IMG/VR virus record: IMGVR_UViG_3300049979_000188
From: a virus
Strand: one strand, 5' to 3'
Length of the DNA: 64,000 nt
The position numbers were made by a program, and so were the translations under genes. Below the pieces are notes generated by a model. That model did not search any database. It was given only the letters and a program-made list of their open reading frames with translations, and was not told the origin of the DNA. This document shows, in pieces, positions 6,181 to 22,938 of the stretch. How positions within the stretch are numbered: the stretch's first letter is position 1; each line of letters begins with the position of its first letter.

Positions 6181-6209
6181 GTTTACGCAAGGCCATAGGC
6201 CCGCGTTAC
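6181..6209 (-). promoter_or_regulatory. phage ECF-like promoter motif copy
   Basis: GTAACG-N16-CGTAAAC. Confidence 0.75.
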
Positions 6210-6871
6210 TGCCCAACCGGCGTGGCCAATAGGCGCGCATCTACCTGCCCCATACGTAAGCCTTGGTTGAGGTGAGGCATCCCCAGGACGAGCTCGCGGT
6301 GAAGCTTAAGCAGGATGTGCACGTGGCAGACTTTCTGCGCCCGGTTTGGGTCGTCGTGCACGCACCAGCACGCCAGGCGCTTGCCCGTTAACTCGGGCAA
6401 GGCCGCCACCAGATGGGGCGTACCGCGCACATATTGCTCGTAGGCAGCCAGCACGGCCGGCCGGTCAGCTTCGCGCTTGAGCGGAAAAGGATTCGCCCAC
6501 ATACTGGCGGTTAGGCCCCGGTGCTCATTGGCCCGGCCCATGTAGAGGTCATAGCGCGCGTGGGGCGTGCGTTTGAGGTTTAGCAGGGTGACATAGGGAT
6601 AAGCCGGATTCTGAGCGGCTAACTCACGGGCCACAAACCAGCTCTCAAACCGGCACTCCGCTACCGGGTAAAGTCCGCCTTGTCGGCCTCGAACAAACAG
6701 GGTAAGAGATTCGGGTTCGTAGAGGCTGGTTAACCGCTCACCGGGTAAACGATTCGTAATATTGCCCATTAGGGCGAAATCAGCCACCACGTCCGTAATA
6801 GCTTCCTGCTCTTGGGCTAACCAGGTAAAGGGCATTCCGTGGTAGTACCGGGCCAGCTTACTAAGCTCCAT
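6206..6871 (-). CDS. DUF4326 domain protein
   Basis: C-terminal YMGR...S.WANPF...Y..Y...L.EL.GK.LACWC...CH..IL. Confidence 0.8.
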   Translation of the reverse strand: MELSKLARYYHGMPFTWLAQEQEAITDVVADFALMGNITNRLPGERLTSLYEPESLTLFVRGRQGGLYPVAECRFESWFVARELAAQNPAYPYVTLLNLKRTPHARYDLYMGRANEHRGLTASMWANPFPLKREADRPAVLAAYEQYVRGTPHLVAALPELTGKRLACWCVHDDPNRAQKVCHVHILLKLHRELVLGMPHLNQGLRMGQVDARLLATPVGQ

Positions 6872-7262
6872 ACACAAAGTCACGTAGTTGCCCGCCCTTG
6901 GCCCGGAAGTCACGCACCAGGCTTACCACCTTACGGCCGGCATCAGTAATCGAGACAAAGGGGTTTACCTCGGTACCCAGGTTCTTTACCCAGTCAATGT
7001 CTTCCAGGTCTTCGAGTACGTCGAGGTCGTCGTGGTTGGGGTCGGGAATGGCACTGCCCTGGTACTGCGTACCATAGGTTGGCTTCCAGGTGGAGTAGCC
7101 CGTACCCAGGCCATTGCCAAAGCCACGCTTATCGGCATTGATACGCAAGCGCTTATCGTCGACAACCCCTTTTTTATCAACGGCACAGCTCTCCAGGTAG
7201 AGCAGCAAACTGTAGTGGTCACGGCCCCAGGTTTTGGTGCCAACGCGTTCGAGCTTATTCAT
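6861..7262 (-). CDS. hypothetical protein
   Basis: ORF tiling. Confidence 0.7.
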   Translation of the reverse strand: MNKLERVGTKTWGRDHYSLLLYLESCAVDKKGVVDDKRLRINADKRGFGNGLGTGYSTWKPTYGTQYQGSAIPDPNHDDLDVLEDLEDIDWVKNLGTEVNPFVSITDAGRKVVSLVRDFRAKGGQLRDFVYGA

Positions 7263-7276
7263 GTGAAAAGTAAGGT

Positions 7277-7522
7277 TTACGGCTGGGATGTTACCGCCGC
7301 CATGGTAATGGTTATGCGCAGCTCCGAACCTTGCCCGATAGTCATCACGCAGGGAAGAGCCGCGGTCGAAGTAGCCGGTTCACGGAGCAACTGGGCTTGA
7401 GCCGCCTCGGCCTTGTCGAGGTTAACCACCAGGTCAGCAAAAAAGGCGATGCAGGCAAACGCCACCAGCACCACCAGCAGGAAGTAGACTACCTCCTTGT
7501 ACTCAGACAAGAACTTACGCAT
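7277..7522 (-). CDS. small membrane protein
   Basis: single hydrophobic helix VVYFLLVVLVAFACIAFF. Confidence 0.55.
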   Translation of the reverse strand: MRKFLSEYKEVVYFLLVVLVAFACIAFFADLVVNLDKAEAAQAQLLREPATSTAALPCVMTIGQGSELRITITMAAVTSQP

Positions 7523-7817
7523 TCGTCTGCTCGTTAACAACATCACGTGGGTCAACAAAGCTGTCGCGCAGCACCACAAACGCCTGGTGCAGGCGCTTGA
7601 GCCGGGCTACTACCTCCGGACTCCAGCTGTGCTTGAGGGCGAGCTCCTGCATGGCCGATTCCTCGGGAGCATCAGGGTCATCGTAGTCGCTCCAGCCCAT
7701 CACAATGCCGTAGAGCCAGGCATCACGCCGATTAGCGCCCATGTCGCGCGAGGTGAAGGCACAAATGTTTTCCAGCGCAATAAGCGGGTTCTCGGGAAGC
7801 TGGTACGGGTTATGCAT
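7515..7817 (-). CDS. hypothetical protein
   Basis: ORF tiling. Confidence 0.65.
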   Translation of the reverse strand: MHNPYQLPENPLIALENICAFTSRDMGANRRDAWLYGIVMGWSDYDDPDAPEESAMQELALKHSWSPEVVARLKRLHQAFVVLRDSFVDPRDVVNEQTNA

Positions 7818-8658
7818 CGAGGGTTACTTTACGGTAGGTAAGGGAAATACGCGGCCCCACGTCCCCTTTCTGGGGAAGTATGGCGTGGAGGTAGTTTTGC
7901 TGGCACGCGGCGTTCATCATCAGCACGTCGCCGTTCTCCAGCTTCAAGTCGATGCGCTCACCCGACTCTTTCTCCCGAAAACTGAAGGTACGCGTAGCCC
8001 CCAGGTTAACCGTGGCAATGACCGGGGCTGGGCCTAGCTGGGCTTCCTTATCCGAATGCCAGCCAATGGTTTGCTTACCATTTATATAAAGGTTGAGCAG
8101 TACGGAGTTATACCCAAAAGCCGTCGACTCGAATTGCTCCAGCTGCTGGCGAATGCCCGTTAGTACGGGCGTAAAGCCTTGACTGGGCAATTCCAAATCG
8201 GCGTATTGGTAAACGCCTTTATCGAAGGCCGGGTCCACGGCATAGGCCATCGCCCGCTTGATGTGCCGCAGCTGTCCTTGCTTGTCGGTCAGCGTGCTGT
8301 ACCAGGTAATATCCTGGGCCGTCTTGGGGTTGCTGCCACGCAAGGCCTCGAAATAAGTCTGGGCCAGCTCGGGCGCAAAGAACCCGGGCAAGTGCAGAAA
8401 ATCCGGTGATTGACCAGCCCGCGTTGCGTTGTAAACCAGCGCGTCGCGCCGCGCATACTCGGTAATGGCGCCCACTTCCCAGCTCATGGCTTCCAGATTA
8501 ACCGCTCCGGGACGAGTCGGATAATCAGAGAAAACCTGCCCTTCTGTGTCACTATTAAGCCGGCCATCCAAATACCAGGTAGTGCCGTCGTGCAGGGCCG
8601 CCGCAATAGTACCTCCGTCACGGTAACGGGTAATACTCTTAATATCGGTAATATTCAT
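7810..8658 (-). CDS. alkB: AlkB-family 2OG-Fe(II) dioxygenase (ALKBH2/3-like) with an extra N-terminal domain
   Basis: YNSVLLNLY..G..TIGWHSDKE...IATVNLGATRTFSFR...L.NGD.L.M....Q..Y.HAI...RISLTYR. Confidence 0.88.
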   Translation of the reverse strand: MNITDIKSITRYRDGGTIAAALHDGTTWYLDGRLNSDTEGQVFSDYPTRPGAVNLEAMSWEVGAITEYARRDALVYNATRAGQSPDFLHLPGFFAPELAQTYFEALRGSNPKTAQDITWYSTLTDKQGQLRHIKRAMAYAVDPAFDKGVYQYADLELPSQGFTPVLTGIRQQLEQFESTAFGYNSVLLNLYINGKQTIGWHSDKEAQLGPAPVIATVNLGATRTFSFREKESGERIDLKLENGDVLMMNAACQQNYLHAILPQKGDVGPRISLTYRKVTLDA

Positions 8659-8668
8659 TGACTTTTAG

Positions 8669-8944
8669 TTAAAACCCGTTGCTCAGGTTTCGGATGCGTT
8701 GCGCCGTTTTAGCCGCACTCACCAGGGCAGCTTCCTGCATGGCCCGGCGTATTTCCCCGTCGGGGTCACTCACGATGTGGGGGCCGCTCAGGTCTGCATC
8801 GTTGTCATTTTCCAGGTAAAGTGTACCGTGGCTAGGGCTGCCTAGTCGCCGGTCCAGGTAGAGGCTGGTGCCGTTGCGCAGATACGCCCGGATGCTGCCG
8901 CCGTCCTTGTAGGCATGGGCCTCGATGATGTCGTTACTGTTCAT
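8669..8944 (-). CDS. small protein paralogous to the N-terminal domain of the adjacent AlkB
   Basis: YKDGGSI...NGTSLYLDRRL versus YRDGGTI...DGTTWYLDGRL. Confidence 0.7.
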   Translation of the reverse strand: MNSNDIIEAHAYKDGGSIRAYLRNGTSLYLDRRLGSPSHGTLYLENDNDADLSGPHIVSDPDGEIRRAMQEAALVSAAKTAQRIRNLSNGF

Positions 8945-9506
8945 GCGCGTCTTGCTCGAAAATGGCGCGCAGGGCCTGGTGAGCTTTTGCTTCCTGCGCG
9001 ATATAACAGTCTACGATGTTTTTAGCCACGGCGTTACCTGGGTCAGTCAGCGCATCCCTGAGGCGAAATTTATAGTAACATCCTTCGCTGTCAAAGAGCA
9101 ACCCACGCGTTTTAGAGACGGGTTTTATGTTCACGTAATACTCTGACTTATCGGCCAGTAGCCCTAGTATTACAGTATCTCTGTAGAGGTTTGCCCGCAC
9201 AACGGGCACATCCGCCTTAAGAAAGACCGGCAGGTCCTGGTCGCGGTGTGAGGCGTAGGGATGTGCCGACTTCCACAGCTCGCGCGCTACCTCAGCCCCG
9301 GCTTCAACTGGTAAGAGCTCTTCACAAGAGGCACTGTAGACGGCGGCTTGTGCACTGGTACGTGGCCCGGGACCGGGACTGCGATAGAGGCGCCCCATTA
9401 GGGGGCTCTTCGGGTTCAAGTCCAAGACAACTACCGTCTGGTCATGCCGCACGGCATAGACGAGCTTCTCGGGTTCATTACGCACTACTAAGGCAAAAGG
9501 TATCAT
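8934..9506 (-). CDS. hypothetical protein
   Basis: ORF tiling. Confidence 0.7.
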   Translation of the reverse strand: MIPFALVVRNEPEKLVYAVRHDQTVVVLDLNPKSPLMGRLYRSPGPGPRTSAQAAVYSASCEELLPVEAGAEVARELWKSAHPYASHRDQDLPVFLKADVPVVRANLYRDTVILGLLADKSEYYVNIKPVSKTRGLLFDSEGCYYKFRLRDALTDPGNAVAKNIVDCYIAQEAKAHQALRAIFEQDAHEQ

Positions 9507-9511
9507 AAAGA

Positions 9512-10063
9512 CTACTGGTAATAAAACGTATCCTCAGGTTGGCGTACCTGAGTATAGGGTAAACATACCCAGGTGCGCTCCCGTCGGCCCAAACCCAGGG
9601 GATAGCGAGCCGGGTCGAGCTGGCTGAGTAAGTCCTTGGCCAAACGCAGCTCACACCAGGCCACGATGCGCCGGGTGGTCAGCTCGTAGAGAAAATACCG
9701 CGTGCTCACTACCCCGGTCCTGGGCCAGGGTTCCGGCAACCGCCGATTATGCAAAAAGCTGCGCGCAGCCGCTAGCTGAGCCTCCTCATAGCTAGCCTGG
9801 TGCCCCCCGCTAGCGGAGTCGACAACCCGGTAGTTGCGGGCCCGTTTCAAGTACGACCACTCGTAAGTCGTATATTCGAGTTGAGGCGGAATGATGTGAG
9901 GCAACCCAGTGAGCCCCTGAATGCGAATGGGGTCACTGTAGCGCGAATGCGAGGTAATTTGGAACCGGTAACCGCAGTAGCGGCTGGCCCAGCGCAACCA
10001 CACTTGTGGGCGGGCCCTACGCCCGCCAGCCTCCAGGTACGGCGCGTTCTTGAACATCGACAA
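9512..10063 (-). CDS. hypothetical protein
   Basis: ORF tiling. Confidence 0.65.
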   Translation of the reverse strand: MSMFKNAPYLEAGGRRARPQVWLRWASRYCGYRFQITSHSRYSDPIRIQGLTGLPHIIPPQLEYTTYEWSYLKRARNYRVVDSASGGHQASYEEAQLAAARSFLHNRRLPEPWPRTGVVSTRYFLYELTTRRIVAWCELRLAKDLLSQLDPARYPLGLGRRERTWVCLPYTQVRQPEDTFYYQ

Positions 10064-10982
10064 AGTGAGCCGGATTACCGACCTGGTATTTGTGGGCGTT
10101 TATGTTGTGCAACAGTTCCATAGCCTGCAGGTAGCGGTTGAACGTTGCCTGACTTTCGGCCCCAAGCTCGGTGGTGTAGGCCTCCACGCTGCCAAAGTTA
10201 AGCTCGTGGGCGTAGTCAAAGCCGGCCGTGCGCATCTGCAGGTAGAGCTCAACGGCCCAGTAAGGGGCGCCAATCATTTGCTCATCGTCGCGCTCGTCCC
10301 ACACGTCGCCTTGCGGGGTGGCTTCCATAATACGGGTAGGCACGCCTAAGTAAGCGCCTACCTGATAGACTTCACTCTTGTGCAAATCGCCGATAAACTG
10401 CAAGTCAACCATGGCGTCGGAGGCCTTGCCAAAGAAGCCCAGGTAAGCCCCCTCATCCCGGTTGGTCGTGCCGGCTACCAGGGAGCGAAACCCCTCCGTC
10501 TGCAGAATAGCCGCCTGGAAGTAAAACATGGGGGTACGCAACACGGAGGCCATCTGCCCGTTGGCCCAGGCCTGGTGACGATAGGTTTGGCCGACCCCAT
10601 TGACCATCGCCTCGTAGGCGGTAGCCAAGTTGATGGAGTCGTACGTGATAACGCTACCGTTGCGGTGGCGAATGTGCTCGACCACTTCGCGGGCCTTGTT
10701 ACTAGCCTCGGCCTGGCCACTAACCCCGCTCACTCCGTACATGGGTAAGCCCATCGCCGCAATGCGCTTAATGGGCGAGTCAGGTTGACGCGCGGCCGCA
10801 TCGAGCAGGTAAAGCGCAACTGCCGAATCAATGCCCCCGGAAATGCCCAGCACTACCGCATCGAGCGCCTGGGTACGGAAGAAGTTATTGAGGGCCCGTA
10901 GCTTGGCGGCCACGTAGCTTTCGACCTCGAAGCCGCGGGTCTTTTTGAAGCGGGAAATCAGGGCTTGCAAGTCAGCACGCAT
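10017..10982 (-). CDS. nadE: NH3-dependent NAD+ synthetase
   Basis: VVLGISGGIDSAV PP-loop, GTTNRDE, FIGDLHKSEVYQVG..LGVP..I....PQGD...DE..IG. Confidence 0.92.
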   Translation of the reverse strand: MRADLQALISRFKKTRGFEVESYVAAKLRALNNFFRTQALDAVVLGISGGIDSAVALYLLDAAARQPDSPIKRIAAMGLPMYGVSGVSGQAEASNKAREVVEHIRHRNGSVITYDSINLATAYEAMVNGVGQTYRHQAWANGQMASVLRTPMFYFQAAILQTEGFRSLVAGTTNRDEGAYLGFFGKASDAMVDLQFIGDLHKSEVYQVGAYLGVPTRIMEATPQGDVWDERDDEQMIGAPYWAVELYLQMRTAGFDYAHELNFGSVEAYTTELGAESQATFNRYLQAMELLHNINAHKYQVGNPAHFVDVQERAVPGGWRA

Positions 10983-10987
10983 AAGGC

Positions 10988-11671
10988 TTAATCAAGGGGG
11001 ATAAAAGGAGAGGGAACTATGCTATGGCTCAGGCCGTCTTTGCCACTGTACTCGGTCGTAACAGTGTAGATTTTTTCACTTTCGGCCGCGGCCACGACCT
11101 CGTCCCAGCTTAGCTCAACCAGCGAGTCGGGAACGACGCCTTTACCAGGCTCAAACTCGTAGCACCAGTAATGGCGGTACTCGGCCTTATACTGGTGCAT
11201 CGCGTGGTGACTCTGATAGAGCTGGCGGGCGTAGCGATAGGTGCCATGGTTGTAGAAGGGATGAAAACCCGCTTCGAGCTGACCTGGCCACTGCGCACCA
11301 TAGCCGTACCACGTTTGCGTGTTGGAACGAGCTGCCACGGGCGGTAGGCCCAGCGGTAGAAACCCAAGACGCTGCAGCTCCAGGAAAATACTAAGCTGAT
11401 TGAGGGCTTCCTTCAGTACGGCGGTCCCCCCGTGCTCGGGGTAGTAGACAAAGCGCTGTAGCTGGTAATCCGAGTTGAGTTGAACGTGCTCCTGGTAGGG
11501 CTCACGGTGAGGCAGCTTGCGCAAGCTGGTGTAAGGCAGACACGTGCGCAGCGTCACAAACGTGCTGTCCGTCTTGACCAGTTCAAAGGGCAGGCCATAG
11601 CCCAGGGCCTGCCCCAAAATACGCTGTATTTCAGCTTTAGGCAAGTCGACAAATTCTTGGAAGGGTCTCAT
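10988..11671 (-). CDS. hypothetical protein
   Basis: 227-aa ORF starting 5 nt from a promoter motif. Confidence 0.7.
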   Translation of the reverse strand: MRPFQEFVDLPKAEIQRILGQALGYGLPFELVKTDSTFVTLRTCLPYTSLRKLPHREPYQEHVQLNSDYQLQRFVYYPEHGGTAVLKEALNQLSIFLELQRLGFLPLGLPPVAARSNTQTWYGYGAQWPGQLEAGFHPFYNHGTYRYARQLYQSHHAMHQYKAEYRHYWCYEFEPGKGVVPDSLVELSWDEVVAAAESEKIYTVTTEYSGKDGLSHSIVPSPFIPLD

Positions 11672-11676
11672 GCCAA

Positions 11677-11705
11677 GTATACGCTTAACCTGGGCTATCC
11701 GTTAC
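11677..11705 (-). promoter_or_regulatory. phage ECF-like promoter motif copy
   Basis: GTAACG-N16-CGTATAC. Confidence 0.75.
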
Positions 11706-11987
11706 CAGGCGTCCCCACCCCAGTTCGTCGAGCTGACGCAGCAAGTCAGCAGCATCCGTAAAGCTAAAGCCCGCGTACGGGTAAGGACCTTGCTCCGGGT
11801 AATTGGAAAGGGGCTGCTTAAGCACGGCTACCCCGGATGCCCAAAGCTCCAGCTCGCGCTTCTCGGGGCTAATAGATTCGCCTTCCCAGCGAAAGCCGCC
11901 TGGCCAACCCGCGCCACTGAGCAAGTCTACTCCCCGGGCCTGCAGTTCCTGCTGCAGCATACTATCGACAAAAAAAGAACGTGTCAT
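11685..11987 (-). CDS. hypothetical protein
   Basis: ORF tiling. Confidence 0.6.
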   Translation of the reverse strand: MTRSFFVDSMLQQELQARGVDLLSGAGWPGGFRWEGESISPEKRELELWASGVAVLKQPLSNYPEQGPYPYAGFSFTDAADLLRQLDELGWGRLVTDSPG

Positions 11988-11993
11988 TTTAGG

Positions 11994-13550
11994 TTAGTTT
12001 TCAGGTTGAAGAGCTTGTAAACGGGTTAGTTCTGCGAGGGCTTGTGTATGAAAGGCAGGGTCCGTATCAGCGTGATACGCCACGTTGGCTTGCCAAACCG
12101 CGAGTGAAAAAGCCATCGGCTCGCTAATTGACGCCCGGTAATAGGGGCAAACGTAGGGGTAGACGTAGGGAACCCGGGTGCGCACCTTGACGGAGTCCAT
12201 ATCGCCCTTTTCCACGACGAGTCCCCCAAAGGGGGCCCCCAGGATAAAGTCACGCGCATCGAGTACTTCCGTATCGGAACCTGATTCAACCAGGGCCCAA
12301 GTCTTGCCGATGGTGACGCCACCCTTCGCCAGGGCCTCGGTGACGAACCGGAAGGTCGCCCCGCCTTGCACATCGTCATCAAATAAGTCGTAGCTACCGG
12401 GGGGAATCTGCGCGCCCCAGCGCACGTACTCTTCGACCGTGCAGGTAGCGTGCATTTCAGGTCGCACCCCGAAGCTAAGAAAGCGCAGGCCAAAGGTATC
12501 GTAGACCCGGCTTACGGCAAAGACATGGTCCGCCTTATTAGGTGGGTCACTTCTCACGTAAGGGTCCAGGCTAATGAGGGGTTCGCGGCGTCCGTACAGG
12601 GGCCCAAAAGGGGAAGGGTGGTCTACGCTGGGACGACGGCGACGCGCAAAGTCGAGTTGCTGCTCCTGCAGTCGCACTACCTGAACTTCGTCAAAGTAGG
12701 GACGCAGCAGTTCCACGAAGGGCAGCTCCCGCTCCTGCGTTACCCGTACCACAAGCTTGCGCGGGGTAGGTGGGTACGTAAAAGCTTGGCGCAGCTGGGT
12801 GGAAGAAAGACTGCTGGTGTTTACGGCTTCGAGAATCACACTCGGATAGGGGCCGTCGAGTAAGGAGCCTACGTTAGGGCCGTGGTAGTGCTGCTGCAGG
12901 GCCCGCACCTCGGCCATGGCCTGGCCATACATGGCTTCGTAGCCAGGCCGGCTTACCACGACCGCCTGGCCGTGGTGGGCAAAGGCGTTGGCAAAGCGGG
13001 CGTTATCACCGCCACAGACGTAAAAAACGGGTACGTGGTGGCCCGTGCGCAACTGTACGTAGCGTTCGAGTCGCATAACCAACTCCGTAAAATTAAGCGA
13101 GCCCGGGGCAAATACCCCAGCCCAGGGGTCTACATTAAGCCAGGGCTCAAACTTGGTAGCATCGGCCAGCAGGCGAATACGCTGGTGAATGGGCAAGGCT
13201 TGCTCACCGAGCTTGTAGCGGATGTACTCGTCGTGGTCGGGCGCCAGAAAGCCCCCTACGCAGGTATAACCAGCCGCGTTCACCGCATCGCGCGCTACGC
13301 GCATCATTTGCAGGTGACCCTCGTGCACGGGGTTAAACGAGCCCGTCCCCAGTACGATGGCCGGCCGCTTGGCCTGGGCTAACTGCTCGCGTACGTAGCT
13401 CAGGGGGGTGCAGTCCAGCGCCAGGCTTTGCGGAATGTTGAGCGGACTGGCAAGCGAATCAGTAAAGAAGCCAGCCTGCGCAATACCGGCCTCCCCAAGC
13501 TCCCCGACGACGGTGCTAAAGAAAGGGTCCTGGGCGATTTTGTGGTTCAT
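11994..13550 (-). CDS. NadD/NMNAT-like nucleotidyltransferase fused to a C-terminal PRTase-like domain
   Basis: GSFNPVHEGH (HxGH), FYVCGGDN, SLSSTQLR; C-terminal DLFDDDVQGGATF resembles a PRPP-binding loop; start trimmed to MNHKIA. Confidence 0.8.
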   Translation of the reverse strand: MNHKIAQDPFFSTVVGELGEAGIAQAGFFTDSLASPLNIPQSLALDCTPLSYVREQLAQAKRPAIVLGTGSFNPVHEGHLQMMRVARDAVNAAGYTCVGGFLAPDHDEYIRYKLGEQALPIHQRIRLLADATKFEPWLNVDPWAGVFAPGSLNFTELVMRLERYVQLRTGHHVPVFYVCGGDNARFANAFAHHGQAVVVSRPGYEAMYGQAMAEVRALQQHYHGPNVGSLLDGPYPSVILEAVNTSSLSSTQLRQAFTYPPTPRKLVVRVTQERELPFVELLRPYFDEVQVVRLQEQQLDFARRRRPSVDHPSPFGPLYGRREPLISLDPYVRSDPPNKADHVFAVSRVYDTFGLRFLSFGVRPEMHATCTVEEYVRWGAQIPPGSYDLFDDDVQGGATFRFVTEALAKGGVTIGKTWALVESGSDTEVLDARDFILGAPFGGLVVEKGDMDSVKVRTRVPYVYPYVCPYYRASISEPMAFSLAVWQANVAYHADTDPAFHTQALAELTRLQALQPEN

Positions 13551-13804
13551 GATGTAGCGAGTAAGCAGGTAAGAAGTAGATGCAGAAACTTGACCACCAG
13601 AAAGTAAGGCCAGAATAAGACAACCACTACCTGACTTATCAGGTAAGATAGTAGCAAGGCCCACTCGGGCGCGGGTAGGGCCAGTTTCTCTACGAAGTGG
13701 GTCCAGAGCGACGTGCGGTACGCCACGTAATGGCAGGCCGGTAAGACGACCAGGGCGTAGTAGAGGCCAGCTACTAGCCAGTAGGTGAACACAGTTGTTA
13801 CCAT
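13547..13804 (-). CDS. small membrane protein
   Basis: two hydrophobic helices. Confidence 0.55.
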   Translation of the reverse strand: MVTTVFTYWLVAGLYYALVVLPACHYVAYRTSLWTHFVEKLALPAPEWALLLSYLISQVVVVLFWPYFLVVKFLHLLLTCLLATS

Positions 13805-14007
13805 GCGATGACATTCCCTTCGAGCCACTCGTAAACACTGTCTCGCCAGCCCGTGTCATTCATGCCGTACGCCTGGGCATCGTAGCGCAGGGCAGCGGGG
13901 AGCTGGTCAAAAATACGCTGCAGCTCACGGGGGGAATAGCTATCGCCCGTGGCATCGACCAGTACATCGTGGAAGTGGTCCCAGTCGTTTCTTGTGAATT
14001 CAGCCAT
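13798..14007 (-). CDS. hypothetical protein
   Basis: start MAEFTR; tiles with its neighbours. Confidence 0.55.
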   Translation of the reverse strand: MAEFTRNDWDHFHDVLVDATGDSYSPRELQRIFDQLPAALRYDAQAYGMNDTGWRDSVYEWLEGNVIAW

Positions 14008-14014
14008 AAGGTGC

Positions 14015-14827
14015 TTACTTGCTAAAGGGGGCAATGGCTTCGAAAATAACGTCGAAGCGAATGATAATGCGCGGGCCTTCCCCGCCTTCGTATTTGGACA
14101 CGTCATGCGCCAGGCGGTGGTCAAACAAGAGCACCGAACCCATTTGAGGAGTATAGGCGTCGCGCACCAGCTCCGGGTCGCTTACCTCGTGGTCCCAATC
14201 CTGGTGACGACGCATGGCGACGGGTACCAGGTTCTGTCCATCCGCAATAAAGCGCGTAGCGCCCGTCGAGTTGGTTGTCAGGTAGAGTACCCCCGACATG
14301 AGGGTACGTTGCAGGCCTCCGGGGTAGATGTAGCCGGCATCGTAATGGGTGAAGTGCTGGCCGCCCTGGTCGTAGCGCATATAGCGCGCCATCGGAGAAA
14401 CCCCTACTGGGGCCCAGTAACGGTGGCCATGGGGTCCTTTTCCTTCGGCATCCGCGTCAAACCAATCGGTAGCTGAGTACGCACCCATCAGGCGTCGAGC
14501 AGGCAGAAAAGGTTTAATAAGCGGCCAGAGCGCTTCCCCAAAGCCTGGGTCCCAGCACGTGATGCGTTGCGAGCCAAGCTCACTGGTGGCCGCCGTTACC
14601 GGTCCACCCGGCGCCATGCCTTGAATGGTTACCGGGGCAAAGCTACCCTGCCGCTCGAAGTAGGCCCGAAGTAGTTGGCAGCTGGCTGGGGTCAGCAGGT
14701 CGCGTACGTAGATTTTATGGTCCAGTGCACGCAGTAGGGCGGCGCCCGGATTGCCTGAAAGCTCGGGAAATACTTCTTGGCTTACGCAGCCGCCGGGAAT
14801 GCGGCTCATGTCAGGAGCACTGTTCAT
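14015..14827 (-). CDS. 2OG-Fe(II) oxygenase (prolyl-4-hydroxylase-like)
   Basis: RYMRY..GGQHFTHYD (HxD), SGVLYLT..GATRF, LLFDH...HDV, RIIIRFD. Confidence 0.85.
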   Translation of the reverse strand: MNSAPDMSRIPGGCVSQEVFPELSGNPGAALLRALDHKIYVRDLLTPASCQLLRAYFERQGSFAPVTIQGMAPGGPVTAATSELGSQRITCWDPGFGEALWPLIKPFLPARRLMGAYSATDWFDADAEGKGPHGHRYWAPVGVSPMARYMRYDQGGQHFTHYDAGYIYPGGLQRTLMSGVLYLTTNSTGATRFIADGQNLVPVAMRRHQDWDHEVSDPELVRDAYTPQMGSVLLFDHRLAHDVSKYEGGEGPRIIIRFDVIFEAIAPFSK

Positions 14828-14855
14828 AAAAAAGCAGGAGGTTGGTTACAAGGAA

Positions 14856-14884
14856 GTTTACGTAAAAAAGCCCTGCGCTGTTAC
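14856..14884 (-). promoter_or_regulatory. phage ECF-like promoter motif copy overlapping a terminator hairpin
   Basis: GTAACA-N16-CGTAAAC; GCCCTGCG/CGCAGGGC stem plus U6 on the minus strand. Confidence 0.7.
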
Positions 14885-14904
14885 TAACGCAGGGCTCGCA
14901 GAAA

Positions 14905-15123
14905 TCAGGGCTTCGTATAATTTGCCAGGTACGAGGCACTCAGGCTTAGCTCAGGGTCTACTTCGCGCCCGGTACGCCGGCTAAAGGTCCAGGGCCCGCA
15001 GTGAATAAGGTCCTCGTCGACCAGGGTTACGTTGAGCTGCATCGGAACGCGGCCGGCTAAGAGCCGCAAGACAGTATCACCTGCTTCGACGGCCATAAAA
15101 TCTACGCGTGTGGGCTTTTCCAT
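14905..15123 (-). CDS. hypothetical protein
   Basis: ORF tiling. Confidence 0.6.
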   Translation of the reverse strand: MEKPTRVDFMAVEAGDTVLRLLAGRVPMQLNVTLVDEDLIHCGPWTFSRRTGREVDPELSLSASYLANYTKP

Positions 15124-15401
15124 GGAAATAAGTACGGGTCGAGTAAAGCAAGTACTTCAGCTTGGCTGCGAGTAGCAGGCTGGTGGGTAGCCAGCAGGTT
15201 ATAGCCGGTAATGGCTACCTGCAGCTCAGGGGTTTCGAGTATGAAAACCTTTTGGTAGCTTAGGGCAAAGCTTACGTTCACTTGCTCGGCCTCGAAGGCT
15301 AGCACCGACTCAATCCGGCAGGGTCCTTGCGAGATGAGGATGCTTTTGAGCTGCTCGCCGGCAAAGGTGTCGGGGGTAAGCTGGGGGATATTATTGGTCA
15401 T
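15102..15401 (-). CDS. hypothetical protein
   Basis: ORF tiling. Confidence 0.6.
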   Translation of the reverse strand: MTNNIPQLTPDTFAGEQLKSILISQGPCRIESVLAFEAEQVNVSFALSYQKVFILETPELQVAITGYNLLATHQPATRSQAEVLALLDPYLFPWKSPHA

Positions 15402-16146
15402 GTTGAGCTTCGGGTTTGGGAAGTAGCGCTTCAGGTAAATCGTCCGGGACCTGGCCCTGCATGACCTGGTCGGCGTTGTGCAGAATAAAGGCTACGTACT
15501 GCAGGGCTACCTCCGCATTGCCACTTTTACTTAGCACCCGGCGAATACGTTTGACCAGTAAGGCCACGCTTACGCGGTGAACTCCTACGCGGTGCGTGTC
15601 GGTAAGGGCATCGAGTTTAGTTCGCAGCTGCAGCACCTCGTTGCGTAAGCCAGCTTCCACCCCGTGGTTATCGGCAGTGGGCAGACCGAGCTGTCGCAGA
15701 TTGGTTTCCAGTGATTTAATGCGCGTGCGTAAACTACCGGCCTCGCTATTAGCTTCGAGTAGCTTCTGGCGAAGTTCACGTACGGAGCTGGGTTCCGCCT
15801 TAGCTTGTGCGCCTTCCGGGCTTACCGCGGATTTGCTGAGTAGGAGTTGGACCTGGCCCTGGGTGTTTTTAAGCTGCCCTTGCAGGTTACTAACCTGTTC
15901 GTTTAGTCGGCGTACGTGGTCTTGAAAGGCCGTATTCTCCCGACTTAAACGGCGTGCCAGCCTTTCGCTCTCGCTTAACTGTCCGCTTATTTTATCGGCG
16001 TCAATCACGTCTTTACGGGCACTGAGCTTGGCGCCTACTTCCCGCAACGCGTCCACGCCACCACGAATATACTGCGCGTGTTCCGTGTCGTTGTCACGGC
16101 GCCAGGCGCCAATCTGGTTTCTAAAAAAGGAAAGAACGTTAAACAT
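15391..16146 (-). CDS. coiled-coil protein
   Basis: long heptad stretches. Confidence 0.7.
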   Translation of the reverse strand: MFNVLSFFRNQIGAWRRDNDTEHAQYIRGGVDALREVGAKLSARKDVIDADKISGQLSESERLARRLSRENTAFQDHVRRLNEQVSNLQGQLKNTQGQVQLLLSKSAVSPEGAQAKAEPSSVRELRQKLLEANSEAGSLRTRIKSLETNLRQLGLPTADNHGVEAGLRNEVLQLRTKLDALTDTHRVGVHRVSVALLVKRIRRVLSKSGNAEVALQYVAFILHNADQVMQGQVPDDLPEALLPKPEAQHDQ

Positions 16147-22065: not shown

Positions 22066-22938
22066 CTAGTCCAGAATAAGCCAATCGGTGGCCAGCCAGT
22101 CTGCCTGGTAGGGTTGCGCCGCTTCCATAGTCCCGTTTTTGAGCACGGCCACCACAAAATTTACCCCCATGGCAATGCCCGAAACCGGTAGGTTATCTAC
22201 GGCAAGCACCTCGCTTACTGTGGGAACGAAGACGGCGCTGTCAGTAAGCAGCCAGTAGCCATCCCAGTGCAGACGTGCAATGCGCTTGCCTCGTTTGAGG
22301 GCCTCGATGGCCGCCCCGAAGGAATATAAGCGCTGGTCAGGCCGCCAGTTAATACTCTCCCGGCGCTCTAAGTCAGCGGGTTCTGCAGCTGGCGCTGGTT
22401 GGCGTTCCGGAGCAAAAGGCAAGTCAAAGGCCGCATCACTGCCGTAGGAGGTTCCGTCGTCGTACCAGCGGCGCGTGCGGTAGGCATTCGCGCGCCACAC
22501 GTCCCCGATAATACCGGCCCAGCTTCCGTCCGGGTACACGGCGTAGCTTAACTCATGGGCCTTGAGCTTATGCCCGCCCTTGGTGCGCTCAACTTTGCCC
22601 AGGTCGTGTTTGAGGCGACTCTTACGGTAGACCTGGTACTCGGCCTCCCCGCCCTTGATAAAGTACTTCCCAAAGTCCCCTTCCGAGAAGAAATGACTGC
22701 TGGCCCCGGACCCATCCGGGTTACGTCGCACCACCGAATAGGCAATGCGTCCGTCACCCTGGGGGGTCACGTAAGCTTCGCACGCATCGCCTACGAAGAA
22801 CCTGTTCCAATCGTTAGAGGCAACTTCGTCACACTCGCCCATGAAATGGCTGGGATGGGGTTCGCGCACGCACATGCAGTTGAGGAGTACGCTCTGGGTT
22901 GGCACATCTTGGGTGTGCTTGAGGTCTGAGTTTTCCAC
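22066..22938 (-). CDS. multidomain protein with a C-terminal DUF2829/Tad2-like domain
   Basis: SFGAAIEALKRGKRIARLHW ... PYQADWLATDW. Confidence 0.75.
   Translation of the reverse strand: MENSDLKHTQDVPTQSVLLNCMCVREPHPSHFMGECDEVASNDWNRFFVGDACEAYVTPQGDGRIAYSVVRRNPDGSGASSHFFSEGDFGKYFIKGGEAEYQVYRKSRLKHDLGKVERTKGGHKLKAHELSYAVYPDGSWAGIIGDVWRANAYRTRRWYDDGTSYGSDAAFDLPFAPERQPAPAAEPADLERRESINWRPDQRLYSFGAAIEALKRGKRIARLHWDGYWLLTDSAVFVPTVSEVLAVDNLPVSGIAMGVNFVVAVLKNGTMEAAQPYQADWLATDWLILD

Follow-up and report, generated by a model that had tools for sequence, protein, structure and literature searches.

A gene module shared by jumbo phages and bacteria pairs an NAD synthetase paralogue with an oxidase and an adenylyltransferase fusion in a probable NAD+-building route

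The 64,000-nucleotide stretch of viral DNA analyzed here (IMG/VR record IMGVR_UViG_3300049979_000188; hereafter the window) is part of the 202,851 bp contig of an uncultured jumbo phage from a leaf metagenome, and carries many small minus-strand genes along with eight tRNA genes. Cultured phages gave no match, whether searched by tblastn with the fusion protein described below and with a 646-aa neighbor, or by megablast with 25 kb of the sequence. Three minus-strand genes of the window encode a paralogue of NadE, the synthetase of nicotinamide adenine dinucleotide (NAD), an approximately 518-aa fusion protein that joins an HxGH nucleotidyltransferase to a C-terminal segment with a loop like those that bind phosphoribosyl pyrophosphate (PRPP), and an oxygenase resembling prolyl 4-hydroxylases (P4H). 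An earlier reading of the bare sequence (the original prediction) had named these three proteins, and all of them were confirmed at the positions where it had placed them:

10017..10982, minus strand: NadE-family PP-loop amidase, 321 aa, without a glutaminase domain (PF02540, TIGR00552, PP-loop)
11994..13550, minus strand: 518-aa fusion protein, with a predicted eukaryote-type adenylyltransferase of nicotinamide or nicotinate mononucleotide (NMN or NaMN) at residues ~44-262 and a type I phosphoribosyltransferase (PRTase)-like domain at ~262-512 (profiles, conservation, AlphaFold2 (AF2) model)
14015..14827, minus strand: P4H-like 2-oxoglutarate (2OG)/Fe(II) oxygenase, 270 aa, the conserved oxidase partner of the module

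The open reading frame (ORF) of the fusion gene, taken mechanically, extends to 13859 and encodes 621 aa. The actual start is assigned to the ATG at 13550, because this codon overlaps the stop of an upstream 85-aa gene (ATGA) and because homologues begin there, as do all 114 of the 114 full-length ones compared. The N-terminal domain contains the motifs GSFNPVHEGH and SSTQLR, within a family that keeps G70, H76, G78, H79 and S250 without exception and R254 almost always. Its profile retrieves human NMN adenylyltransferase (NMNAT) 3 (PDB 1nup, 1.4e-9), with human NMNAT1 and the plant and fungal enzymes also near 1e-9, as against 0.26 for bacterial NadD; likewise, the score of the fusion against the bacterial NadD equivalog TIGR00482 (46 bits) does not reach the cut-off of 112.45. 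In the AF2 model of the protein (predicted local distance difference test, pLDDT, 90.7), this domain superimposes on the fungal NMNAT 9iw1 (Z 18.9, root-mean-square deviation 2.6 over 196 residues) and on 5z9r (Z 17.6). By profile and by model, the N-terminal domain is accordingly classified as a putative NMN/NaMN adenylyltransferase of the eukaryotic type.

The C-terminal domain is more divergent, and no Pfam family, including PF00156 (Pribosyltran), detects it. Its loop in the window, LFDDDVQGGAT (DDD-x2-GG-x-T), corresponds to a family consensus LxDDDIxTGxT, the canonical PRPP loop, and HMMER aligns it, residue by residue, to the corresponding loop of APRT, VVDDLLATGGT. Weak profile matches in the PDB, the best at 0.0034, are type I PRTases in 33 of 33 cases. 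AF2 modeling of this domain had been proposed in the original prediction as a check, and the model (residues 262-512) resembles the type I PRTase fold, with Z 8.1-8.7 to orotate and purine PRTases, such as OPRT 2yzk (Z 8.7, 111 aa) and HGXPRT 4z1o (Z 8.3, 149 aa). The residues D329, R348, D393, G397, D431, D434, R459, Y462, P465 and R472 are invariant in the family and T399 nearly so, as is, without exception, a proline-rich motif RxPYxYPYVxP. We read the C-terminal domain as a divergent type I PRTase-fold domain that would bind a ribose 5-phosphate group and presumably catalyzes phosphoribosyl transfer.

The NadE-family protein matches PF02540 with 90.5 bits (cut-off 21; 1.2e-25) and TIGR00552 with 86.3 bits, over the cut-off of 63.65, and its PP-loop, SGGIDS, fits the pattern SGGxDS. 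It stays far under the cut-offs of all full-length equivalogs (for example, 102.7 versus 255 for NF010587) and lacks a glutaminase domain. Among solved structures, its closest relatives are the NMN synthetase of Francisella tularensis (3fiu, 1.7e-15) and NadE of P. horikoshii (2e18, 4.1e-14), in effect a tie. A C-terminal extension of about 60 aa ends in VPGGW (10017-10040), and most of 19 homologues end in R-x-(V/I)-P-G-G-W, the proline of this tail being variable, with VEGGW, VKGGW and IRGGW also found. The N-terminus of the oxygenase begins with a similar sequence, K-P-x2-S-K-L-P-G-G-W-E-P (window positions 14780-14800), and in proteins in which NadE and the oxygenase are fused the two PGGW-type copies lie about 20 residues apart. 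The shared motif may therefore be a docking tail. Hydroxylation of the tail proline of NadE by the oxygenase was considered as well and set aside, since that proline is not conserved.

The oxygenase scores just under the cut-off of 27 bits against the Pfam families PF13759 and PF13640 (25.7 and 23.6 bits), and its fused relatives reach 31.2 bits, over the cut-off. The iron triad H161-x-D163 and H237/H241 and the 2OG arginine R253/R257 are invariant in 16 homologues; three further arginines (R88, R148, R192) are also invariant, and the tryptophans W92, W122 and W211 nearly so. The AF2 model (pLDDT 89.6) resembles OGFOD1 (Z 14.3), several P4Hs (about Z 13.8), PolD (Z 13.4), AlkB (Z 13.0) and PasI (Z 12.4); PolD is the best Foldseek match (4.5e-7), and the closest solved relatives are prolyl hydroxylases. 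Conserved residues and model together assign the protein to the 2OG/Fe(II) superfamily, with a predicted fold of the P4H/AlkB group. Protein hydroxylases, nucleotide oxygenases and AlkB all score equally well, at Z 12-14, and the structure therefore does not reveal the substrate.

A pattern search with the fusion family identified related loci, of which 14 are bacterial (Bacteroidota, Gammaproteobacteria, Myxococcota and two Leptospira) and 15 are phage loci with full-length relatives. Compared with its operon-encoded counterparts, the NadE of the window shows 38-50% identity (22 loci) and the oxygenase 33-43% (21 loci). Three phages (L015, L016 and L018) and 13 of the 14 bacterial loci have the genes side by side in the order nadE, oxygenase, fusion. 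In most of the other phage records (L017, L019, L023, L025, G009, G012, G034 and the window) the three lie within about 10 kb of each other, and both complete phage genomes checked are in this set. In G009, G012 and G034 nadE and the oxygenase gene stay adjacent, though the fusion gene is 8-11 kb away. NadE and the oxygenase form a single ORF in L011 and L013, and in L014 all four domains are encoded in one ORF of 1,193 aa.

The same association is seen on a larger scale in a library clustered at 50% identity, where the profile of the C-terminal domain matches at least 519 clusters with E below 1e-30. In nearly all of the 519 the domain is at the C-terminus of a protein of 450-620 aa, and about a dozen matches span 1,048-1,429 residues. 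Each of the four long fusions that were scanned has NAD_synthase and 2OG-FeII_Oxy_3 domains ahead of the PRTase-like domain; the nucleotidyltransferase domain is also present in three of them (P0160, P0173 and P0166), with none detected in P0241. Fusions of oxygenase, NMNAT and PRTase-like domains without NadE occur as well (P0228 and P0181). The original prediction had treated the oxygenase as a mere upstream neighbor, a view that no longer holds, given that it is fused to NadE or to all of the other domains in many proteins and is swapped for another oxidase in two phages (see below). From the fusions and the gene order, the oxygenase is a core part of the module and its putative, integral fourth activity. 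Some loci display additional features. P0130 (705 aa), a relative of the fusion, continues past the PRTase-like domain into an additional GNAT acetyltransferase domain at its C-terminus (PF00583, 6.9e-14). In L005, a Cellvibrio metagenome-assembled genome, the fusion gene (7107-8570) is split into ORFs of 115 and 363 aa, a break that points to a frameshift or to faulty assembly, and a second small P4H-like gene (185 aa, PF13640, 6.5e-8) is located just upstream of nadE.

The bacterial loci indicate the metabolic context. Nampt adjoins the operon in L003, L005, L006 and L028, the NAD regulator NrtR in L003, L006, L009 and L028, and an ADP-ribosylglycohydrolase in L003, L017 and L023, and these neighbors place the module in NAD homeostasis. 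No feeder or transporter gene was found to be conserved beside the bacterial operons, and the other neighbors (polysaccharide deacetylase, hydrolase, MatE, Smr and a MoaA/viperin-like radical S-adenosylmethionine (SAM) enzyme) do not recur widely. The gene for the last of these, with the motif CNLRCAEC, is on the opposite strand upstream of the operon in L003 (3777-4580) and L004 (4781-5632), adjoining it in L004 only; the two are closely related Gammaproteobacteria, which weakens the meaning of the link. Among the host genomes searched, a long glutamine-type NadE is present in five of five and a canonical NadD over the cut-off in four of five, so the module is an accessory route. The two operon-bearing Leptospira genomes have no gene of the NAPRT/Nampt family, which leaves the C-terminal domain as the only candidate PRTase, if the NrtR-linked operon starts from a free base. 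The suggestion in the original prediction that this domain may supply a phosphoribosyl step gains indirect support from this.

The distribution is patchy: in the genus to which Leptospira weilii belongs, one species out of 22 has the module. In the phylogenetic tree phage and bacterial copies are interleaved, at least three switches being forced by well-supported branches, and the copy of the window is sister to that of phage L017, which has the same gene order. Taken together, gene order and phylogeny portray the module as a conserved, mobile and patchily distributed accessory operon. It is not phage-specific, and in bacteria it sits beside NrtR and Nampt.

The records that contain NadE and the fusion protein without the oxygenase are two, L022 and L028, and both encode a protein of roughly 370 residues that contains the motif Cx4Cx2C and whose gene overlaps the end of nadE in L022 and just follows the fusion gene in L028. 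These proteins match TIGR01210, the model of the radical-SAM enzyme RaSEA, at 4.7e-49 and 1.9e-48; the score is under the equivalog cut-off (167 versus 212 bits), indicating a paralogue. The RaSEA-like protein is absent from the oxygenase-bearing records searched, and in the window tblastn with the Nampt, NrtR, ADP-ribosylglycohydrolase and RaSEA-like proteins of related loci gave no matches. RaSEA is known to work, in the synthesis of archaeosine, in an obligate complex with ArcS, which puts lysine on a nitrile, after which RaSEA trims the lysine off and the nitrogen stays on the base; the nitrogen donors of ArcS exclude ammonium, glutamine and asparagine (PMC11298593). The alternation of an O2-dependent and a radical enzyme beside NadE points to a real C-H-activating step, with oxidative cleavage of a C-N bond, coupled to amidation, and makes an oxygen sensor or a stray gene less likely.

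From the domain identities, the gene linkage, the domain fusions and the exchange of oxidases, we infer the following substrates and products. The type I PRTase-like domain would join a base, most likely nicotinate, to PRPP, giving NaMN, which the fused NMNAT domain would adenylylate to nicotinate adenine dinucleotide (NaAD). The NadE paralogue would then use ATP to activate the carboxylate, and the 2OG/Fe(II) oxygenase together with NadE would complete the amide. For the last step we propose that NadE ligates an amine donor (for example, the side-chain amine of lysine), not free ammonia, to adenylated NaAD or NaMN; that the oxygenase hydroxylates the carbon beside the amide nitrogen; and that the resulting carbinolamide collapses to NAD+ (or NMN) and an aldehyde. 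TilS, another PP-loop enzyme, uses lysine as a nucleophile on an adenylated intermediate. Such a mechanism would explain the fusions of NadE with the oxidase, the exchange of oxidases and the missing glutaminase domain. During infection the module would keep NAD+ up and would probably help against NAD-depleting defenses; a counter-defense role is plausible, with a gene for a Tad2-like domain 7 kb away.

These proposals are of unequal strength. That the module builds NAD+ at all is likely. For the whole scheme, in which four activities produce NAD+ from a free pyridine carboxylate or feed NMN into NAD+, we see about as much reason for belief as for doubt. The mechanism proposed for the oxidative step, namely ammonia-independent amide synthesis via an amino-acid adduct by NadE and an oxidase (the 2OG oxygenase or, without oxygen, the RaSEA-like radical-SAM enzyme), is tentative and suggested by analogy. 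Several observations weigh against one or another part of this interpretation. Ordinary NH3-dependent NadE enzymes work without a partner, and P0110 is a fusion of NadE, NMNAT and PRTase-like domains that has no oxygenase domain. In the window itself nadE and the oxygenase gene are not adjacent, being separated by 3 kb and five ORFs. The nearest solved relatives of the oxygenase act on proteins, not on small molecules. The PRTase assignment depends on one loop motif, a fold score of intermediate size (Z 8-9) and a borderline profile E-value of 0.0034, with PF00156 silent. The exchange of oxidases involves two records, 41% and 76% complete, and a search for more phages with the RaSEA-like enzyme yielded one further locus, L046 (a phage of 341,648 bp, 97% complete), which encodes it without NadE or the fusion protein. 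The L046 gene, 31% identical to that of L022, probably serves another pathway, perhaps the formation of archaeosine in DNA.

The alternatives differ mainly in the task that they assign to the oxygenase. It might act ahead of the PRTase, in a plain Preiss-Handler-like route with NadE using free ammonia, for instance by AlkB-type N-demethylation of trigonelline or another N-alkyl pyridinium to nicotinate. Trigonelline is a plant compound and the sample a leaf metagenome, the fold of the oxygenase is of the P4H/AlkB type (AlkB, Z 13.0), the fusions P0228 and P0181 link oxygenase, NMNAT and PRTase in the absence of NadE, and a radical-SAM replacement could cleave a C-N bond too. Neither plants nor mammals have a known trigonelline demethylase (PMC10963276). 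Nevertheless, we regard this explanation as unlikely, considering that the tightest and most persistent pairing is between NadE and the oxidase, not between the PRTase and the oxidase, and that no conserved transporter or methyl-handling gene is located nearby. In addition, the replacement belongs to the RaSEA family, whose known job comes after an amine-transfer enzyme (PMC11298593). Another task would be oxidation of NaMN, NaAD or the base, so that the product of the module is a modified pyridine dinucleotide, perhaps resistant to NADases or used as a signal. The best Foldseek match, PolD, acts on a nucleotide (4.5e-7; Z 13.4) and PasI follows at Z 12.4, the extra arginines and tryptophans would suit an anionic aromatic ligand, and host genomes own a complete canonical NadD and NadE. 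However, NrtR and Nampt as linked genes suggest ordinary NAD homeostasis, the Leptospira operons occur without another salvage PRTase, and a RaSEA-type radical-SAM enzyme is not known to hydroxylate. To our knowledge, no such modified NAD analogue has been described, and we consider this possibility quite improbable.

It is also conceivable that the oxygenase is a regulatory protein hydroxylase or a sensor of O2 or 2OG and the C-terminal domain a regulator that binds PRPP or a nucleotide, the chemistry being limited to NMNAT and NadE acting on host mononucleotides. The nearest solved relatives (OGFOD1, PHD2, the EF-Tu hydroxylase PPHD and collagen P4Hs) would agree with such a role, as would the PGGW-type motif at the NadE C-terminus and the oxygenase N-terminus and the proline-rich RxPYxYPYVxP of the C-terminal domain; PRTase-fold regulators such as PyrR exist and are among its weak profile matches. 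Against this, the tail proline of NadE is not conserved, a radical-SAM enzyme would not replace an oxygen sensor, the C-terminal domain has many invariant charged residues, as in an active site, and the Leptospira genomes have no other salvage PRTase, all of which makes the regulatory scenario highly doubtful. Finally, five unrelated small ORFs and a second promoter interrupt the genes in the window, as might be expected if the three were unrelated neighbors in a gene-dense phage genome. This reading is refuted by the fusion proteins and can be practically discounted: the occurrence of the domains in single polypeptides, together with the recurrence of the genes across phyla and phages, rules out a chance neighborhood. 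Returning to the NAD+-building interpretation, the third, Preiss-Handler-like phage route proposed in the original prediction survives in part, in that NadE implies a deamidated intermediate, whereas plain conversion of NaMN to NaAD to NAD+ leaves the oxidase unexplained.

The remaining features of the locus in the window are the following:

14859..14897, minus strand: terminator-like hairpin (14897-14868) with an overlapping promoter motif GTAAC-N17-CGTA (14884-14859), 32 nt upstream of the oxygenase start
13798..14007, minus strand: small gene, 69 aa, a phage-specific insert between the oxygenase and fusion genes (sequence reading)
13547..13804, minus strand: small hydrophobic protein, 85 aa, probably membrane-bound (likewise a sequence reading)
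11685..11987, minus strand: 100-aa ORF, doubtful as coding, with the next promoter motif inside its 3' end
11680..11705, minus strand: another GTAAC-N17-CGTA promoter motif (the second copy), which heads the nadE unit and precedes the 227-aa gene by 9 nt
10988..11671, minus strand: 227-aa orphan protein between the fusion gene and nadE, outside the conserved module

Read along the minus strand, the order is hairpin and promoter, oxygenase, 69-aa and 85-aa genes, fusion gene, 100-aa ORF, second promoter, 227-aa gene and nadE. The motif GTAAC-N17-CGTA has 22 copies in the window (from 6184 to 60068), all on the minus strand, compared with 0.5 expected, and each copy inspected sits just upstream of a gene start; it is accordingly predicted to be the phage's own promoter motif. 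As copies head both stretches, the module would be read from two units of one promoter type. An Rfam scan of positions 9000-15500 yielded a sub-threshold match to NsiR1 (28 bits, gathering score 39) and nothing else, and an NsiR1 RNA was rejected, the match being the terminator hairpin itself. In a search of sequencing runs, the probable source sample was the only one listed with the sequence, and no RNA run was among the matches.

None of the interspersed ORFs was retained as a part of the module: those of 227, 100, 183, 190, 69 and 85 aa have no informative family and no relatives in the related loci. The 69-aa protein matches PHROG 10191, of unknown function, at 5.8e-6, and the stop of its gene overlaps the start of the 85-aa gene (ATGGTAA); no family was found for the 85-aa protein. 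The 100-aa ORF matches neither Pfam nor PHROGs and is without relatives in the related loci compared, and the 227-aa protein has no match in Pfam, PHROGs, NCBIfam or PADLOC and no relative in the 29 related loci, with all its Atlas scores below 0.9. PADLOC identified no defense system, its only match being that of a generic 2OG domain model (1.5e-7), with none for NadE, the fusion protein or the neighbors. The NadR model TIGR01526 reaches 16.6 bits in the window, against a cut-off of 341.

Three further regions of the window deserve mention. A 290-aa protein (22066-22938, minus strand), encoded 7 kb from the module, has in its last ~85 residues a Tad2-like anti-Thoeris domain (PF11195, 4.4e-9), preceded by ~200 aa that match no known family. 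An AlkB-like 2OG oxygenase (7810-8658, minus strand; PF13532, 2.8e-29) adjoins a 91-aa ORF (8669-8944, minus strand), the first 43 residues of which resemble the first 43 of the AlkB-like protein (BLASTP, ~2e-9), suggesting a partial duplication. A DUF4326-domain protein (4.3e-15) is encoded at 6206-6913 on the minus strand, 3 kb from the NAD module.

Bacterial immunity uses NAD+ depletion as one of its main weapons. To the three characterized phage pathways that restore NAD+, the module would add a fourth, made of different enzymes. It is common, since jumbo phages and scattered bacteria together contribute at least 519 clusters at 50% identity. New enzymology may be found in it as well, in the form of a PRTase of the type I fold for a pyridine base and of an oxidative step tied to NAD synthetase; we know of no textbook NAD pathway that has a place for the latter. 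If the oxidase unmasks the amide from an amino-acid adduct, the final bond of a universal cofactor would be formed in a new manner, the ArcS/RaSEA strategy would have a second use, and the module would amount to a self-contained cofactor route, spread by jumbo phages and free of host nitrogen control. The genes of the module are candidates for counter-defense tests and for NAD/NMN bioproduction.

Of the known systems, the phage NAD+ reconstitution pathways (NARP) are the closest in presumed function. NARP1 consists of Adps (PRPS-like) and Namat (Nampt-like) and NARP2 of Nampt and NMNAT, in a paper that does not mention NadE (bioRxiv 10.1101/2024.02.11.579819), and NARP3 of the PnuC transporter and a NadR-like kinase/adenylyltransferase (PMC13464706). 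Like these, the module is predicted to be a phage-borne NAD+ supply, and an NMNAT activity is common to NARP2, NARP3 and the module. NadE, a type I PRTase-like domain and an oxygenase are absent from all three pathways, and the module occurs in bacteria, too, as an operon. In the window, neither Nampt/Namat nor Adps, PnuC or a NadR kinase domain was found. The view taken in the original prediction, that the genes belong to NAD metabolism and fit neither NARP1 nor NARP2, can thus be extended to the newer NARP3.

A different parallel is offered by Francisella tularensis, in which NadE* is an NMN synthetase that converts NaMN to NMN ahead of NadM (PDB 3fiu; PMC12143786). This enzyme is the best solved relative of the phage NadE, and both are short and have no glutaminase domain. 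A Francisella-like order, with amidation of the mononucleotide followed by a dual-specificity NMNAT, would work equally well for the module; however, the margin of 3fiu over an ordinary NH3-type NadE is negligible, and the phage NadE has the ~60-aa extension and an oxidase partner. The model for the proposed trimming of the adduct is ArcS-RaSEA, as the oxygenase-free versions of the module contain a TIGR01210/RaSEA-family enzyme. The differences are that the partner in the module is NadE and not ArcS, that the product would be a carboxylate-derived amide and not a nitrile-derived amidine, and that the window encodes an oxygenase and not a radical-SAM enzyme. No report of an NMNAT-PRTase fusion, or of NadE in combination with a 2OG oxygenase or a radical-SAM enzyme, was found in the literature searched.

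The Preiss-Handler pathway (PncB, NadD, NadE) shares with the module the presumed logic of a base joined to PRPP, adenylylation and amidation by a NadE-family enzyme, and both occur as gene clusters in jumbo phages. A pncB-nadD-nadE cluster has been described in a jumbo phage (PMC11662467), so that a Preiss-Handler-like route, raised in the original prediction as a possible third one, is already on record for jumbo phages. The module has no PncB, a type II PRTase, and instead a type I PRTase-like domain is fused to the adenylyltransferase; the latter is of the eukaryotic NMNAT type, unlike the bacterial NadD, and the oxidase, be it the 2OG oxygenase or the RaSEA-like enzyme, has no counterpart in the known pathway. 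Judged from gene content, a deamidated route in phages is not in itself new, and what appears to be new is the set of enzymes and the putative oxidative step.

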